From a virus (lineage: Duplodnaviria; Heunggongvirae; Uroviricota; Caudoviricetes): a stretch of 26,702 nucleotides of DNA. Location of the stretch: IMG/VR virus record IMGVR_UViG_2660238061_000004, one strand, 5' to 3'. Positions 11,548 to 19,985 of the stretch are shown here, in pieces. A program made the translations under genes and the position numbers. Numbering within the stretch: the first letter of the stretch is position 1; every line of letters begins with the position of its first letter. The notes beneath the pieces were generated by a model, which saw only the letters and a program-made list of their open reading frames with translations, searched no databases and was not told the origin of the DNA.

Positions 11548-11754
11548 TCACCCCCAGACCTTCTGACGGAGTGACCGCGGCGTACGTTCCTGCCGGTGCG
11601 CCTCCGGCAGCCGGGCGCTGACGGTCCAGGTGACGTAATCGGGATTCAGGCTTCGCTCTACCTTCACGCCGCGGCGCCGGTATTCCGCCATGAGCTCGTC
11701 GGCCTGCTGCGTGGTGCACTCGGTGTGCTGGAACCATGTTTCTTTCATCGGCAT
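11548..11754 (-). CDS. hypothetical nin-region protein
   Basis: 68-69 aa ORF (MPMKETWFQHTECTTQQADELMAEYRRRG...) tightly packed between the DUF1367-like gene and the ybcO-like gene. Confidence 0.45.
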   Translation of the reverse strand: MPMKETWFQHTECTTQQADELMAEYRRRGVKVERSLNPDYVTWTVSARLPEAHRQERTPRSLRQKVWG

Positions 11755-12353
11755 CACCCCACGAAGCTCATGAGCTGCGCAGCGGCATTATCCGCGTCGC
11801 TACGGCTCTTGAATGCCCTGGACAGGATCCAACGCCACAGAACATCGAGTGCGGCCCTGTAGAGTTGCTGGAACTCGGTTTCGTCCATATTGGCGAAGGC
11901 GATGCTGCGGGGGTGTTTGCGGAGGGTGCCGTCAGGCAGCTGTATCGCGTCGTAGTGGCCGGATTCGATGGTTACCCAGGCGCGGTAGGCGTCGAATGAC
12001 TTGCAGGCGCTGATGCTGCCCGTGCGCTTATCAGCGATGCGCTCGAGATATTGCTCAGCGGCATCCAGCAGCGCCCCTTCGTTCCCGCCGTAGGAGGCCA
12101 GAAATCTGGCATAGCCGGTCACCAGCTTGCGTTCGTTGGAAGAGATCGCCCCGCCGGTTGGCTCCCAGTATTCGAACCCGAGGTTTAAAAGCGCGAAGAA
12201 GCGGCGGTGGAAAGCCGGATTGCGGACCTGTTTGAAGTCGGCTACCAGCACGGCGCCGAGTTTGATTTTTGATTGCAGAATATCGCTGGTCTCCGGCGTC
12301 GCGGGGATCAGGATTCCTGATGACTGCTTGATGAGTTGTAGTTCGTGCGCCAT
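11754..12353 (-). CDS. conserved phage protein, DUF1367-like
   Basis: 199-aa ORF (MAHELQLIKQSSGILIPATPETSDILQ...); size and position match the roughly 200-aa DUF1367 proteins of lambdoid nin regions, from memory. Confidence 0.5.
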   Translation of the reverse strand: MAHELQLIKQSSGILIPATPETSDILQSKIKLGAVLVADFKQVRNPAFHRRFFALLNLGFEYWEPTGGAISSNERKLVTGYARFLASYGGNEGALLDAAEQYLERIADKRTGSISACKSFDAYRAWVTIESGHYDAIQLPDGTLRKHPRSIAFANMDETEFQQLYRAALDVLWRWILSRAFKSRSDADNAAAQLMSFVG

Positions 12354-12387: not shown

Positions 12388-12636
12388 TCAGACCGTTGAT
12401 TTCATATTATCAGAAGGTTGGGTTACCCGGTAGCCGAGACGGTTAATAAACTGCATAAAACCATTAGGAGTAAAGACCTCTTCATCATCCAGCAAAGGCC
12501 GCATAGAAACCATGCCATTGACGCGATAAATTAGATGCCTGCCCGATGAAGGAAAGCTAAACACCACGCAGCCGTCAGACCTTCTTACAATGTCATACCA
12601 GTTGTCTTCTGACGTTTGCAAAGCTGAATCACTCAC
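12388..12636 (-). CDS. small hypothetical protein downstream of the dinI-like gene
   Basis: 82-aa ORF (MSDSALQTSEDNWYDIVRRSDGCVVF...); same strand as and 117 bp after the dinI-like gene with no obvious terminator between them. Confidence 0.45.
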   Translation of the reverse strand: MSDSALQTSEDNWYDIVRRSDGCVVFSFPSSGRHLIYRVNGMVSMRPLLDDEEVFTPNGFMQFINRLGYRVTQPSDNMKSTV

Positions 12637-12753
12637 ATTTATGTTCTCCCTTCGAGCGACTAACAGACGCGATTAAAGATTGTCGGCAGCAGCATCAGAG
12701 GGTTACGCAAATTGCGGTATTCTGAAAAATGCGCGCCAGCCTTAAGCGCAATT

Positions 12754-12987
12754 CTAATAAAACCAGTCGTCAGCGCTTTCCCAGGTATCCTGGAGGATTG
12801 ATTCAATTTTCTTTTTATCGTCCTTGTCACCACCAAAAACACTTAACCCATCGGCCCCGGCACGGCGGATTGTGAGCCTGCAATTGTCATAGTGATCATT
12901 CAGGCGCTTAAGCAGTTCTTTCTCCAGTGCTGGTACTGCGCCTTTAGGAAGTTCTTTCATGCGATCAATGGTTAATTCAACTTTCAT
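12754..12987 (-). CDS. dinI: DinI-family protein
   Basis: 77 aa from the internal ATG (MKVELTIDRMKELPKGAVPALEKEL...ILQDTWESADDWFY) with the DinI C-terminal signature; GGGGG SD upstream; LexA box about 20 bp upstream. Confidence 0.8.
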   Translation of the reverse strand: MKVELTIDRMKELPKGAVPALEKELLKRLNDHYDNCRLTIRRAGADGLSVFGGDKDDKKKIESILQDTWESADDWFY

Positions 12988-13005
12988 AATGGCCCCCATT
13001 GCATG

Positions 13006-13050
13006 TACTGTGTTTTTATACAGTATACCTATGCGCGGAAATGATCAACG
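13006..13050 (-). promoter_or_regulatory. SOS box (LexA operator) overlapping the -10 of the dinI-like promoter
   Basis: TACTGTGTTTTTATACAGTA at 13006..13025 fits CTGT-N8-ACAG; on the minus strand TATACT overlaps the box and TTGATC lies about 15-16 bp upstream. Confidence 0.65.
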
Positions 13051-13094: not shown

Positions 13095-13117
13095 GAAAAC
13101 CCGCCGTAGCGGGTTGA
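13095..13117 (-). terminator. rho-independent terminator for minus-strand transcription, left boundary of the AT-rich island
   Basis: aacccgc-cgta-gcgggtt perfect stem preceded by an A-run on plus (T-run on minus). Confidence 0.5.
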
Positions 13118-13478
13118 ATTAGCAGTGTTATATTAAGCGGCAATTTCTTTCTGCCGGCACAATCCCGAGAGATTCGCCCTCTGTATCGCATCATCAATGA
13201 GCACCTGTATGACCATGAGGCAAAGCGTTATCCAACTTGCATTCATCTTTTTCAATCAGCAAAGGAGTGGTTAGTGCTGTGAGTGGGCTTTGTTCACTTC
13301 ATGGTAGATAAATCAGCTATGGATAAGTGATAAGAGGTGAAATCAATCCGAATTAACAACCTGAAGCACATTAATCGGAACACAGATATTAAAATCCTAA
13401 AGTCTAGTAACAAATAGCCGATATGAGATATTGCTTATCAGTTTAAAAATCATCTATTGAAAAAATGGGGGGGAGGCG

Positions 13479-14042
13479 TTGAAGCGAGTAGAGCGCGATT
13501 TTATCTGTCTGTTTAATTGTGTGTGGTATCAAGATTTCCCTGTGTTCAAAGGTGAATATATCAACCGTTCCAACTGGACCATTCATGTTGGCCTGGTCAT
13601 GCGCGAGTGTGCAAAGTTAATGGGCGCAAGAACATTTTTTGAACAAGGCGGGCGTACCGATGCGGTCCTACAATATCCAGACAATCAAATTTTAACCTAT
13701 GTTGAGTGGGAGTATAATCAGGCAGACAGAGATAGCGTTAACGAGTTAGACAAACTGCTTGAAAAAAACGACAAGTGCTATTTCTCCACATTCATCTCAT
13801 ATTGTCAGCATGAAAACATCAATATTGTTATTGAAAAAGCAAGTAGAATATGGAGTGAAGCAAGCAGGCCTTTGATTTTTTTTCTTATCACCTATGAGCC
13901 TCAAACGAAAAAACGCCGCCATTTTTTAGAACTCAGAACTTATTTTTTCTCAAACGGCAAAAGAAAACTAGTTCGCAAACAACCTGCGCTTCCATGGGAT
14001 ATTGAGCAACGAAAATACAATGTCGAAGAAGATGCAGGATAG
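13479..14042 (+). CDS. orphan 187-aa protein, AT-rich, function unknown
   Basis: TTG start with strong GGGGGGAGG SD 3-4 nt upstream; roughly 40 percent GC by eye versus a GC-richer backbone; opposite strand to the surrounding phage genes. Confidence 0.5.
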   Translation: MKRVERDFICLFNCVWYQDFPVFKGEYINRSNWTIHVGLVMRECAKLMGARTFFEQGGRTDAVLQYPDNQILTYVEWEYNQADRDSVNELDKLLEKNDKCYFSTFISYCQHENINIVIEKASRIWSEASRPLIFFLITYEPQTKKRRHFLELRTYFFSNGKRKLVRKQPALPWDIEQRKYNVEEDAG

Positions 14043-14081
14043 AAGAGACATAAGGTTTTCACGACAGTCTCGTTCCGAGCC

Positions 14082-14463
14082 CTAACTAAAATATTCTGTT
14101 CGGAGCAACCAAATAGCTCTGGCTTTGCTGTGACCATGTTCGCGGTACCAACGCCTCTCTAGGTCCGCTTCTCGCTCATGGTGGACCAAAATCAAATCTA
14201 AAATGACGTGGCTAAGCGGGAGTACATAGTGAATGACAGGATGCTCCGGGCAGCACCATACTAATTCAGTTCCCGTCAGAGGTAGGCGTTGCTTCATGAT
14301 GGGATGAGCGCTCCCTCCAGACAATCCATGCGACAGCCGCCTCCCATGATATATATCCATTACCGCCATTTTTCGCTCTGCGGAGATTAACTGCATCACC
14401 AAACCTTTCAATGATGAATTTTTCAAATTCTATGCGTTTTTCTTCGTCGATTGTTGAATCCAT
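14082..14463 (-). CDS. pair of overlapping small ORFs (65 aa and about 71 aa) or one frameshifted gene
   Basis: Upstream frame MDSTIDEEKRIEFEKFIIERFGDAV... ends at 14266; second frame has a GGAGGGAG-ATG start near 14303 and runs to 14082 (MKQRLPLTGTELVWCCPEHPVIHYV...). Confidence 0.35.
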
Positions 14464-14530
14464 ACCTTCCCCAGAAGAGTCCTACGAATCGCTCTTATTG
14501 CATAAAAAATAGCATATACAATAGAGAGTG

Positions 14531-14550
14531 AAAAACCGACGTAGCGGGTT
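14531..14550 (-). repeat. degenerate second copy of the 13095 hairpin element
   Basis: aaaaaccgacgtagcgggtt versus aaaacccgccgtagcgggtt at 13097..13115; same orientation; stem is imperfect in this copy. Confidence 0.35.
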
Positions 14551-14742
14551 AACTTTATGTTACTCATGAGTCTTGTCTCGCTGCGACTTAAAAGCGGAAC
14601 ATTCTCGCGCAAGTTGCGTTGCTAAAGCTACGGGGTTGAATGGCTCTCCATGCCCATTTAAGAAGGCATGCGGTGTGTAGTTGAACGTTATTTAAAACAC
14701 AGATAGAATCAAGAAAAATCCTAAATAAATGGAATATTGTTT

Positions 14743-15123
14743 ATGGCTAAGAAAATCGCATTACTGGGCTTTTCTGCTCTTTTTGTTGCAAGTGTTGCTT
14801 TTGCTGAAACGACAAGTAACTGGGTTGAGGTTACTACAGCTGATGATGGCATTTTTTCAGCAAAAAAAGGCACATTTAGAAATGTAAAAGGTGATTCATC
14901 TGCCTTGTTCATGTATCAAACAAAAAATAAAAAAGTAGAGTACTACAAAGTTAGTATTAAAGATGCCGACTGTGATAGTGGATATGGGGAGATAAGATTC
15001 TTCTATATGGATGGGAAATTAGCTTTCAAAGGTGATTATGTTGCTGATGGGAACAGTGTTGGCGCAGGTATTGGTGATTTTATGTGTGGAGTCAGAATTG
15101 GACTTAACACACAAAAAAGTTAA
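14743..15123 (+). CDS. small secreted/periplasmic protein, function unknown
   Basis: MAKKIALLGFSALFVASVAFA signal peptide (AFA-E cleavage motif), about 105-aa mature domain with two Cys; AT-rich; no strong SD. Confidence 0.55.
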   Translation: MAKKIALLGFSALFVASVAFAETTSNWVEVTTADDGIFSAKKGTFRNVKGDSSALFMYQTKNKKVEYYKVSIKDADCDSGYGEIRFFYMDGKLAFKGDYVADGNSVGAGIGDFMCGVRIGLNTQKS

Positions 15124-15163
15124 ATGAGGGGCATTTGTTAAAAAACAATAGCCCCACATTAGA

Positions 15164-15365
15164 TCAATATTGGCTCCGGCATTTCTGGATAAAAGCTTCT
15201 ATGCTACGGCGCTCATAGCGAACAATCTTAGCGCTGAACTTTACACGGGGCCAATGTAGACCGGTGTCGGTGTTCTGTATTCCATTTACATAATGTTTTT
15301 TGCGTAATTCCCAGCTTCTGGCATACCTCGCCCGGAGTGAGGAGATCATCAGGTTGCTCAGTCAT
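15164..15365 (-). pseudogene. AlpA-family HTH regulator remnant, frameshifted
   Basis: ATG 15363..15365 with GAGG upstream gives MTEQPDDLLTPGEVCQKLGITQKTLCKW...; the track ORF 15164..15349 in another frame continues with GLHWPRVKFSAKIVRYERRSIEAFIQK, which fits the C-terminal half of an AlpA-type protein. Confidence 0.4.
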
Positions 15366-15537
15366 GTTATGCCTCGCTGTTATCTGGGGTGATGATTAGC
15401 AGCTTCCAGATGGCTGAGACATACATAGCCTGATGTTTCGCATCGACTAGGGCATTATGCATGTCACCTTCAAACGGCATGTCCCGAGTTCTCCCTTTTC
15501 GCCGCTTTCGCGTCGCATATTCTCCAAACGGTATTTA

Positions 15538-18400: not shown

Positions 18401-18619
18401 CTACTTTGGTAATCCGTCAGTGGGATTTGGATAGAGATCAGGGCGCAGCTCGTGGGGGGTTACGCCTGTCATTTTGAAAATCGGGAAGATATAGCTTGGC
18501 GGGACGATCCCTTGGTCACGATTCTTCCAATGACTTACAGACATACTCGTCACACCAAGCGCGATGCTGAGCTTTCTGGCAGAGCCAGCGGCTTTAATTG
18601 CTTTATCGAGTGCGGACAT
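18401..18619 (-). CDS. Cro-like HTH regulator
   Basis: 72 aa; HTH SARKLSIALGVTSMSVSHWKNR; AGGAGA SD; divergent from the repressor gene. Confidence 0.7.
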   Translation of the reverse strand: MSALDKAIKAAGSARKLSIALGVTSMSVSHWKNRDQGIVPPSYIFPIFKMTGVTPHELRPDLYPNPTDGLPK

Positions 18620-18648: not shown

Positions 18649-18711
18649 TAAACCACAGATTTATACTTCATGCAAACTTTGGATTTATTGCGTGCATAAA
18701 CCAAATATTTA
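18649..18711. promoter_or_regulatory. right operator region: three related operator sites about 24 bp apart, overlapping divergent promoters
   Basis: TAAACCACAGATTTA (18649), AAACTTTGGATTTA (18673), TAAACCAAATATTTA (18697); TTGCGT-16 nt-TACAAT precedes the repressor ATG by about 6 nt, implying a near-leaderless transcript. Confidence 0.5.
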
Positions 18712-18721
18712 CAATGACCAT

Positions 18722-19111
18722 ATGAGAAAAGAAGAACCCAACCTCGTTCTGGTGGAGCGCCTTACTGAGATCACTGATCGCGGCGTTACCAAAGCAGACA
18801 TGGCAAGAATAGCTGGAGTCACCCCTCAGGCCGTAAACGGCTGGTTCAAAAAAGGCGTGATTAGTAAGAAATCGGCACTGGCCATAGCCGACGCTGTTGG
18901 TATTTCTGTCGCCTGGCTACTCGGTGAAGACGTTGGGGAGAAAGACGGTCTCAAACCGGACGAACAGCGTTTGCTCGAGCTCTACCGCCAGTTACCGGAA
19001 GAAGAGCAGCAGAACATGCTCCGCATTTTTGCGCTTCGCCTGAAAGAGTTAGATGAGCTGTACGAGAAGTACATGAAGGGTCGGATTCGATCGCAAGGTG
19101 AGCAAACCTAA
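18722..19111 (+). CDS. CI-like phage repressor (XRE HTH) without a peptidase domain
   Basis: 129 aa from ATG 18722; HTH MARIAGVTPQAVNGWFKKG; short C-terminal helical region; track ORF 18452..19111 has a spurious N-terminal extension overlapping cro. Confidence 0.65.
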   Translation: MRKEEPNLVLVERLTEITDRGVTKADMARIAGVTPQAVNGWFKKGVISKKSALAIADAVGISVAWLLGEDVGEKDGLKPDEQRLLELYRQLPEEEQQNMLRIFALRLKELDELYEKYMKGRIRSQGEQT

Positions 19112-19175: not shown

Positions 19176-19457
19176 GTGTCTAAAGAAACAACCGTCGAAC
19201 TTATGCATCTTAATGATGTAATCGAAGCGAAAAATTTCATCGAGACCAATGCTGACGGTGTCGTAACAATCGGCACACAAAATGCCGGTTACGAAGTTTA
19301 CAATTTTGTGTTCCTGAATAGCAGCCCGATCATCGGTACGGATAATGCGGATATAGTCGTCAAGGGCATGCAGCGAACCAAAGTTGTGTCTGTGACTTTA
19401 AGCAAACAAAAGGCTTATGATTTTTATCAATCCTTAAAAAGTATGTTTGAGGAATAA
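19176..19457 (+). CDS. orphan 93-aa protein, first gene of the rex-position pair
   Basis: GTG start with GGAGGA SD; AT-rich; immediately downstream of the repressor on the same strand. Confidence 0.5.
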   Translation: MSKETTVELMHLNDVIEAKNFIETNADGVVTIGTQNAGYEVYNFVFLNSSPIIGTDNADIVVKGMQRTKVVSVTLSKQKAYDFYQSLKSMFEE

Positions 19458-19463
19458 TAATTG

Positions 19464-19985
19464 ATGGATGCGGCTCAATCATCTCTTGGTGAAGGGAAGT
19501 TATTGATTGCATATTCAGACCATAGCGGAGCTACAGTAGGCTTAGAGTTTTCATCAGTAGCTTCGAGCCAAGCAACCTTCCTTATGGGTGCTTGTAGTTT
19601 TGCCGCTTCGGATAAACAAAAACGGATTGTCACATCAGTTGCTATGGATGATACTGAAATCATTCATACGTCAACTGAAGATGGAGGTGACGACATGGAA
19701 AAGAGATTGGCTATTCTTGAGGTTGAAGTTGCCCACATCAAGAAAGATGTTGCCGAGATAAAAAACACAGTTTCAAAAGTTGATACGACAGTGAATTCAC
19801 TGGACAAAAATATGGCTGTAGTTTTGGAGAGGCTGTCTAGTATCAAAGAGTCTGTAGACAAAAAGCCCTCATCAGACACAGTGGACAAGAAAATCTCTGA
19901 TGCTAAATTGGCGATTCTCTTAGGTGTCCCTGCGATTATCGCCATTGGTACAGGGCTGTACAAAGCTTTTATGCACTTCTTTTAG
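19464..19985 (+). CDS. orphan 173-aa protein with coiled-coil and C-terminal membrane anchor, second gene of the pair
   Basis: ATG 19464 with GAGGAA SD; heptad-like middle (MEKRLAILEVEVAHIKKDVAEIKNTV...); hydrophobic C-terminus LAILLGVPAIIAIGTGLYKAF. Confidence 0.55.
   Translation: MDAAQSSLGEGKLLIAYSDHSGATVGLEFSSVASSQATFLMGACSFAASDKQKRIVTSVAMDDTEIIHTSTEDGGDDMEKRLAILEVEVAHIKKDVAEIKNTVSKVDTTVNSLDKNMAVVLERLSSIKESVDKKPSSDTVDKKISDAKLAILLGVPAIIAIGTGLYKAFMHFF

Follow-up and report, generated by a model that had tools for sequence, protein, structure and literature searches.

A probable counterpart of the Gifsy PdinI-gfoA operon, a LexA-controlled induction module, in a lambdoid prophage of Escherichia coli

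Introduction

The Salmonella prophages Gifsy-1 to Gifsy-3 carry an operon in which a terminator-like palindrome, a LexA box, dinI, a small open reading frame with a non-canonical start codon and irsA follow one another (Lemire, Figueroa-Bossi and Bossi, PLoS Genet 2011, PMC3121763). Induction of these prophages needs a cleavable LexA, and it becomes arabinose-dependent when the region of the box is replaced by PBAD. The small open reading frame (gftA or gfoA) is sufficient for induction by itself, and a frameshift within it destroys activity. The Gifsy repressors are not cleaved. Instead, antirepressor and repressor form stable complexes that can be recovered by pull-down and that, for GfoR-GfoA, are consistent with an A2B2 composition, and in gel shift experiments GftA frees the Gifsy-2 repressor from operator DNA. 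Non-polar deletions of dinI in Gifsy-1 and Gifsy-3 cause no significant change in induction, and the same is true of non-polar deletions of irsA in these two prophages (PMC3121763). GfoA has been shown in published work to inactivate both GfoR and the heteroimmune repressor GfhR. The Gifsy dinI genes are induced 14-23-fold during the SOS response and have a LexA box 19 bp from the ATG (PMC8072944), and a single nucleotide polymorphism in the -10 element of PdinI-gfoA abolishes induction of Gifsy-1 in strain D23580 (Owen et al., PMC5322425).

Other elements use related strategies. Coliphage 186 encodes Tum, a LexA-repressed antirepressor that is coupled to a DinI-like sequence, and split versions of tum are found in PSP3 and Fels-2. 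In the Qin cryptic prophage of E. coli K-12, Rem is a small antirepressor of DicA, and no LexA control of rem is known (Ragunathan and Vanderpool 2023). The SOS signal also drives the induction of lambda and P22, but through RecA-stimulated autocleavage of the CI repressor.

Here we analyze a comparable locus in a stretch of 26,702 nucleotides (IMG/VR record IMGVR_UViG_2660238061_000004), referred to below in its full length as the window. The window is a lambdoid E. coli prophage that adjoins kch. It is 98% identical to coliphage mEp237, and its operon region is 99.9% identical to a prophage that adjoins kch in strain PSJ-22. An initial annotation, made from the sequence alone, proposed that a LexA-controlled dinI-like gene and a small downstream open reading frame form an SOS-responsive induction module. 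By our estimate, the probability is about 0.9 that this locus is orthologous to PdinI-gfoA and serves a Gifsy-type lambdoid prophage as its SOS-input module.

Results

Organization of the operon and its surroundings

The elements named in the initial annotation are all present on the minus strand when the sequence is read directly. In the 5' to 3' direction of that strand, the locus consists of a terminator, a promoter with a LexA box, a DinI-family gene (12754..12987, 77 codons), an intergenic linker of 117 nt (12637..12753), an 82-codon open reading frame with a GTG start (12388..12636) and, after a gap of 34 nt, a third gene (11754..12353) encoding a DUF1367 protein (Pfam E 6.4e-93). We refer to the third gene as the irsA homologue, and the published irsA primer matches the equivalent DUF1367 gene in Gifsy-type loci. 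Genes for YbcO, RusA and the Q antiterminator lie 3' of the operon, and the replication genes and the immunity region lie 5' of it. The module is carried by 57 of 5,426 complete E. coli genomes. The antirepressor gene is labeled "hypothetical protein" both in RefSeq and in the mEp237 record.

Between the replication/nin genes and the terminator that precedes dinI is a block of low GC content (13200..15500, 37-45% compared to ~55% in its flanks). Two open reading frames in this block are on the opposite strand. One encodes 187 aa (13479..14042) and the other encodes 128 aa with a signal-peptide-like N-terminus (14737..15123). Neither matched a Pfam or PADLOC family, and both are candidates for moron or cargo genes. 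A PADLOC search with the 82-aa protein and its neighbors yielded no defense family, apart from coiled-coil noise.

The promoter, the LexA box and the upstream terminator

A terminator scan identified an intrinsic terminator hairpin, AACCCGCTACGGCGGGTT, at 13098..13115 on the minus strand, followed by a run of T residues that extends to ~13088. The hairpin (13115..13098) aligns with those that precede the LexA box in Gifsy-1, Gifsy-2, Gifsy-3 and mEp237, and a terminator-like palindrome at this position has been described for the Gifsy operons (Lemire et al., PMC3121763).

The putative sigma-70 promoter PdinI (13022..13048, minus strand) was located by aligning the region with the promoters of the Gifsy prophages. 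It has a -35 element TTGATC (13048..13043) and a -10 element TATACT (13027..13022). A scan for consensus promoters reported none at PdinI, because the spacer between these elements is 15 nt. Neither TTGA nor AGGTATACTGT varies in this alignment; along with the terminator and ACAGT, both are shared by the window with mEp237 and each of the three Gifsy types. Functional Gifsy promoters have the same -10 element and the same LexA half-sites.

The LexA box, TACTGTATAAAAACACAGTA, is located at 13006..13025 on the minus strand, where it overlaps the -10 element and the region of the transcription start and ends 18 nt 5' of the dinI ATG. Its three differences from TACTG(TA)5CAGTA are confined to the AT spacer at the center, and the two half-sites (CTGT and ACAG) are intact. 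With up to three mismatches allowed, the box (13025..13006) is the sole match to the consensus in the 26.7-kb window, and no match was obtained in any of 100 shuffled sequences. The looser pattern CTGT-N8-ACAG also has a single match in the window, at the LexA box, although one match to this pattern arose by chance in 26% of shuffled windows. The description of the site as a near-perfect LexA box over the dinI promoter holds.

The DinI-like protein

Assignment of the first gene to the DinI family is firm. Its product matches Pfam PF06183 with E 3.8e-26 (91.6 bits, with a gathering cut-off of 24.2), PDB entry 1GHH with E 9.5e-18, and PHROG 189. The C-terminus ends in ...ILQDTWESADDWFY, the conserved acidic helix of the family, and the 77-aa protein contains no extra domain. 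A ribosome-binding site, GGGGG, precedes the gene, and the likely start is the ATG at 12987 (77 aa, as in mEp237 and RefSeq) rather than position 12999. In a comparison to NCBIfam NF007893, the equivalog model for chromosomal DinI, the protein scored 91.4 bits, below the cut-off of 111, and it is thus a phage paralogue of the family and not the host DinI. The window dinI gene and its counterpart in loci of the Gifsy-1 type are only ~66% identical.

The linker between dinI and the antirepressor gene

The linker contains a weak terminator-like hairpin (12750..12732) followed by CATTTTT, and it has a Shine-Dalgarno sequence, GGGAG (12650..12646), in front of the antirepressor GTG. It is ~90% identical to the linker of Gifsy-2 despite the different downstream gene. 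A segment of ~145 nt (12654..12798), which takes in 45 nt at the 3' end of dinI together with most of the linker, is ~90% identical to Gifsy-1 and Gifsy-2 of strain LT2. Outside this segment there is no detectable similarity at the DNA level in the dinI bodies or in the downstream antirepressor gene (gftA). We rejected the idea that the linker is a structured RNA element, since it matched no Rfam family and its predicted fold (z-score +0.69) was no better than that of shuffled sequences. Possible roles for the linker are a mosaic recombination joint for the exchange of cassettes, or a weak attenuator.

The 82-aa protein

Sequences of GfoA and GfhA for comparison were rebuilt from two IMG/VR loci, L065 and L080, that were recognized with the published primer table (PMC3121763). 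L065 matches exactly the primers for the 5' end of gfoA, which encodes MSNSALQK, both ends of gfoR, Gifsy-1 PdinI and irsA, and L080 (like L076 and L084) matches both gfhR primers. The translations of GfoA from L065 and GfhA from L080 are identical to each other, and the 82-aa protein of the window is identical to them at 74 of 82 residues (90.2%). The last bases of primer le163, for the 3' end of gfoA (...CCTTCTGATATA; PMC3121763, Table S1), mismatch every Gifsy-1-type locus, in which the genomic sequence is ...CCTTCTGATAATATGAAA. Because these bases match no locus, the C-terminus of GfoA was taken from L065. In the same table, the labels of primers le110 and le111 (gfhR and gfhR*) seem to be interchanged when they are compared to the long and the short reading frame.

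The protein belongs to a small family: a search of 1.84 billion proteins yielded 38 cluster representatives at E <= 1e-3. The protein matches PHROG 340 (E 4.5e-20) and has no match among Pfam, NCBIfam or PADLOC families, hence no ANT, Bro-N or KilA-N domain. An identity as an antirepressor of the P22 Ant, Bro-N or KilA type was rejected on these grounds. Direct BLASTP comparisons to GftA, Rem and Tum yielded nothing. When profiles are compared, the protein and the GftA family show a similarity that is collinear but weak (hhalign probability 40%, E 3e-4; phrog_4847, E 0.063). The structural model is of moderate quality (pLDDT 70), and neither a solved analogue nor a recognizable fold was found for it. 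By orthology, we infer that the 82-aa open reading frame encodes an antirepressor of the GfoA/GfhA type.

The start codon of this gene is unusual. No ATG occurs in frame before codon 42, which lies downstream of the conserved motif WYDIVRR, and the GTG overlaps a minimal ATG-TGA open reading frame (12633..12638). All three subtypes of dinI-linked antirepressor found in our collection (loci L005-L203) start with GTG or TTG. A non-ATG start may keep translation of the antirepressor low.

The repressor and the immunity region

The putative target of the antirepressor is a repressor of the GfoR/GfhR family (18722..19111, plus strand). Its gene is 6 kb away from the operon, in an immunity region that is separate from it. 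The 129 aa of the repressor contain an HTH_3 domain and no match to Peptidase_S24. This agrees with the earlier reading that the repressor lacks a peptidase domain, and on this basis we rejected the class of autocleavable repressors typified by lambda CI and LexA. The RefSeq start is a GTG at 18692, 30 nt upstream (139 aa), whereas alignment to GfoR favors the ATG at 18722. GfhR has two in-frame starts, and both forms of the window repressor may exist.

The repressor is 56% identical overall to GfoR and 56% identical to GfhR (from L065 and L080), and it is 28% identical to DicA (E 5e-12). From about residue 60 on, that is, in its C-terminal half, it is nearly identical to GfhR. Because overall identity to GfoR and GfhR is only 56%, recognition of this repressor by the window antirepressor is something we infer. 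The N-terminal HTH half diverges from GfoR and GfhR, and a different immunity is therefore expected. Repressors that are linked to near-identical antirepressors span 61-100% identity; variation is greatest in their N-terminal HTH half (mean pairwise identity ~0.6) and smallest at residues 81-120 (~0.85). This pattern fits the ability of GfoA to inactivate the heteroimmune repressors GfoR and GfhR, and it suggests that the antirepressor may contact the conserved C-terminal half.

A divergent Cro-like gene of the YdaS family (18401..18619, minus strand; Pfam YdaS_toxin E 1.4e-13, with a weak match to P22_Cro) and a gene in the YdaT/CII position also flank the repressor gene. In the intergenic region between the repressor and cro-like genes, a repeat search identified two 15-nt near-palindromes 48 nt apart, TAAACCACAGATTTA (18649..18663) and TAAACCAAATATTTA (18697..18711), which are candidate operators. 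Directly 3' of the repressor gene, on the same strand and in the position of rexAB in lambda, are two low-GC open reading frames of 93 and 174 aa (19176..19985). The 174-aa product appears to have a coiled coil and a C-terminal hydrophobic segment. Searches with the two proteins gave no confident family, only weak matches of the coiled-coil type; these genes may be exclusion or defense genes that are expressed in the lysogen.

Conservation of the operon and pairing of antirepressor and repressor types

We retrieved 80 IMG/VR loci using the family of the 82-aa protein as a query, and further loci were gathered by a scan with the conserved 3' end of dinI. The order of box, dinI, antirepressor gene and DUF1367 gene is kept in 80 of the 80 loci, which is far beyond chance. 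A CTGT-N8-ACAG box is found 5' of dinI in every one of the 80, ~18 nt from the start in nearly all, and the antirepressor gene begins ~120 nt after the end of dinI. The half-sites are kept while the spacer bases of the box vary and the DinI proteins range from 64 to 100% identity.

Three subtypes of antirepressor occupy the slot after dinI. The GfoA type has 82 aa and starts with TTG or GTG, and the GftA type has 69-80 aa as called and starts with GTG. The third subtype is related to GfoA (VKEKVELPKKGYAVIRCHDG...) and also starts with GTG. In this subtype, seen in L086, L088, L094, L099 and about 20 other loci, the small open reading frame (VKEKVELPKKGYAVIRCHDGVIVARL...RAGYRVTQ, ~81 aa) begins only ~45 nt after dinI and is followed by a different small gene in place of the DUF1367 gene. 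The repressors in these loci are 30-67% identical to that of the window or are of the GftR type. The 45-nt intergenic region is different from the linker described above, which is thus not universal.

The type of antirepressor tracks the type of repressor. Of 49 distinct sequence combinations with a GfoA-type antirepressor, 47 have a repressor of the GfoR family, and in all eight with a GftA-type antirepressor the repressor is of the GftR family (Fisher p = 2.7e-8, uncorrected for phylogeny). In a curated collection of phages, homologues of the antirepressor and homologues of the repressor were found in one and the same set of nine phages. The remaining two of the 49 combinations join a GfoA-type antirepressor to a GftR-family repressor. 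One of them is L067 (IMG/VR contig 2724679262_000001), in which a GfoA-type gene lies behind a Gifsy-1-type PdinI and the repressor is 100% identical to GftR of Gifsy-2, a pairing that is non-cognate by published specificity. This prophage may depend on an antirepressor that acts in trans.

Discussion

Every defining feature of a Gifsy-type PdinI-gfoA operon that can be recognized in a sequence is found in the window. The order of the terminator, the LexA box on the -10 element, dinI, the small antirepressor gene with a non-ATG start and irsA/DUF1367 is the same, the antirepressors are 90% identical, and the repressors belong to the same short HTH family and are nearly identical in their C-terminal halves. 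The differences are that the host is E. coli, that the antirepressor gene starts with GTG whereas gfoA starts with TTG, that the spacer bases of the box differ, and that there is one base fewer between the box and the ATG. The points that count against an orthologous module are the 15-nt promoter spacer, the weak hairpin after dinI, the GTG start, the overall repressor identity of only 56% to GfoR or GfhR, the moderate quality of the structural model and the two non-cognate pairings among the 49.

The more distant systems share parts of this design. Gifsy-2 has the same promoter, LexA box and dinI architecture, a similar linker, and the same mechanism with its repressor GftR (GtgR). However, its antirepressor, GftA, has 73 aa and no BLASTP similarity to the 82-aa protein, and GftR belongs to a different repressor subfamily. 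The link to tum of coliphage 186, which the initial annotation had pointed to, is real: residues 71-141 of Tum are DinI-like and are 32% identical to the window DinI (E 9e-15). In addition, the annotation of 186 places a partial terminator after the DinI-like part, much as a weak hairpin follows dinI in the window. In contrast, Tum is one fused polypeptide with the antirepressor first and DinI second, its N-terminal half is unrelated to the 82-aa protein, and the CI of 186, which is P2-like, is a different one. The window has two genes in the reverse order, and we rejected an identity as a Tum-type fusion. Rem was found by iterated searches starting from GfoA, and like the putative antirepressor of the window it is directed at a short, non-cleavable repressor; DicA shares with the window repressor the C-terminal motif LLEL..LPE.EQ. 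Rem is linked to the 82-aa protein only through intermediate members of the family. Compared to CI of lambda and P22, the signal in the window would be relayed by LexA and then by an antirepressor whose gene stands apart from the immunity region, with no proteolysis of the repressor.

We presume that the E. coli operon acts as its Salmonella orthologues do. In a lysogen, host LexA bound to the box that overlaps the -10 element would keep the operon off, and the upstream terminator would stop read-through and insulate the SOS operon. After DNA damage, activated RecA would stimulate the self-cleavage of LexA, and dinI, the antirepressor gene and the DUF1367 gene would be transcribed. The 82-aa protein would then bind the short HTH repressor, a dimer, and strip it from its operators, so that the early promoters would be derepressed and lytic growth would begin. 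Since the repressor would not be proteolyzed, the switch should be reversible in principle. The proposal of a LexA-repressed induction arm that acts on a non-cleavable repressor is supported by the homologous Gifsy operon, for which this has been demonstrated by experiment, and by the 90% identity of the 82-aa protein to GfoA. One part of the earlier reading has to be corrected. The induction module stands, with the 82-aa protein as its probable inducer, but DinI as the inducer does not, given that dinI deletions in Gifsy-1 and Gifsy-3 are without significant effect.

It could nevertheless be argued that the DinI-like protein is the inducer, either as a Tum-like antirepressor or by way of RecA, and that the 82-aa open reading frame is incidental. 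The C-terminal half of the 186 antirepressor is DinI-like (PMC3121763), and among the SOS genes of the operon, dinI comes first and is conserved best. However, the small open reading frame of Gifsy suffices alone and a frameshift in it abolishes induction (PMC3121763), non-polar deletions of dinI in Gifsy-1 and Gifsy-3 have no significant effect, the antirepressor activity of PSP3 maps to the half that is not DinI-like (cited in PMC3121763), and the window DinI, at 77 aa, has no additional domain. We regard an inducing role for DinI as extremely unlikely. A slightly better case, though still a very unlikely one, can be made that the operon is an accessory SOS cassette that mainly benefits the host or modulates RecA through DinI, and that the prophage is induced in another way or is non-inducible. 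DinI and the DUF1367 protein have no known role (PMC3121763), and in one natural strain a single promoter polymorphism suffices to silence the module (PMC5322425). Yet the repressor has no autocleavage domain, the -10 element and LexA half-sites are those of functional Gifsy promoters, the antirepressor reading frame is intact and 90% identical to GfoA, and antirepressor type tracks repressor type across loci.

The least likely of the explanations that we considered is that the LexA-like palindrome arose by chance or is vestigial, and that expression of the operon depends entirely on transcripts that extend into it from the early right operon once induction has begun. A match to CTGT-N8-ACAG in 26% of shuffled windows is what such an explanation would draw on, but the full 20-mer was never matched in the shuffles. 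Moreover, the box overlaps a -10 element and has a strong terminator just 5' of it, its distance to dinI is kept in nearly all of the 80 loci while its spacer bases vary, and the Gifsy dinI genes are SOS-induced 14-23-fold (PMC8072944). We conclude that the region is most probably an orthologue of PdinI-gfoA.

As such, the module would be the E. coli copy of a characterized Salmonella operon. The practical value of the finding lies in the transfer of annotation, as a gene that is still called "hypothetical protein" encodes a product 90% identical to a protein of proven function. For annotators, the sequence indicates that the induction route of this prophage would be LexA plus an antirepressor, and not cleavage of the repressor. 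Since antirepressors of the GfoA type inactivate heteroimmune repressors of the same family, a strain that carries this module may co-induce other prophages after exposure to DNA-damaging antibiotics.

The window also raises ideas about the tuning of expression, the exchange of cassettes and cross-talk to other resident repressors, all of which are speculative and, in our judgment, rather unlikely to be correct. Three features might together keep the dose of antirepressor low relative to DinI, so that an SOS threshold could be set for a reversible switch: the lack of an ATG start in all three antirepressor subtypes, the weak hairpin with its T-run that follows dinI, and the ATG-TGA mini-ORF of the window. 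The ~145 nt comprising the 3' end of dinI and the linker could be a recombination joint where one antirepressor cassette replaces another in step with changes in repressor type. The E. coli antirepressor might also act in trans on other resident repressors of the GfoR/DicA family and couple the SOS response to genes of cryptic prophages.
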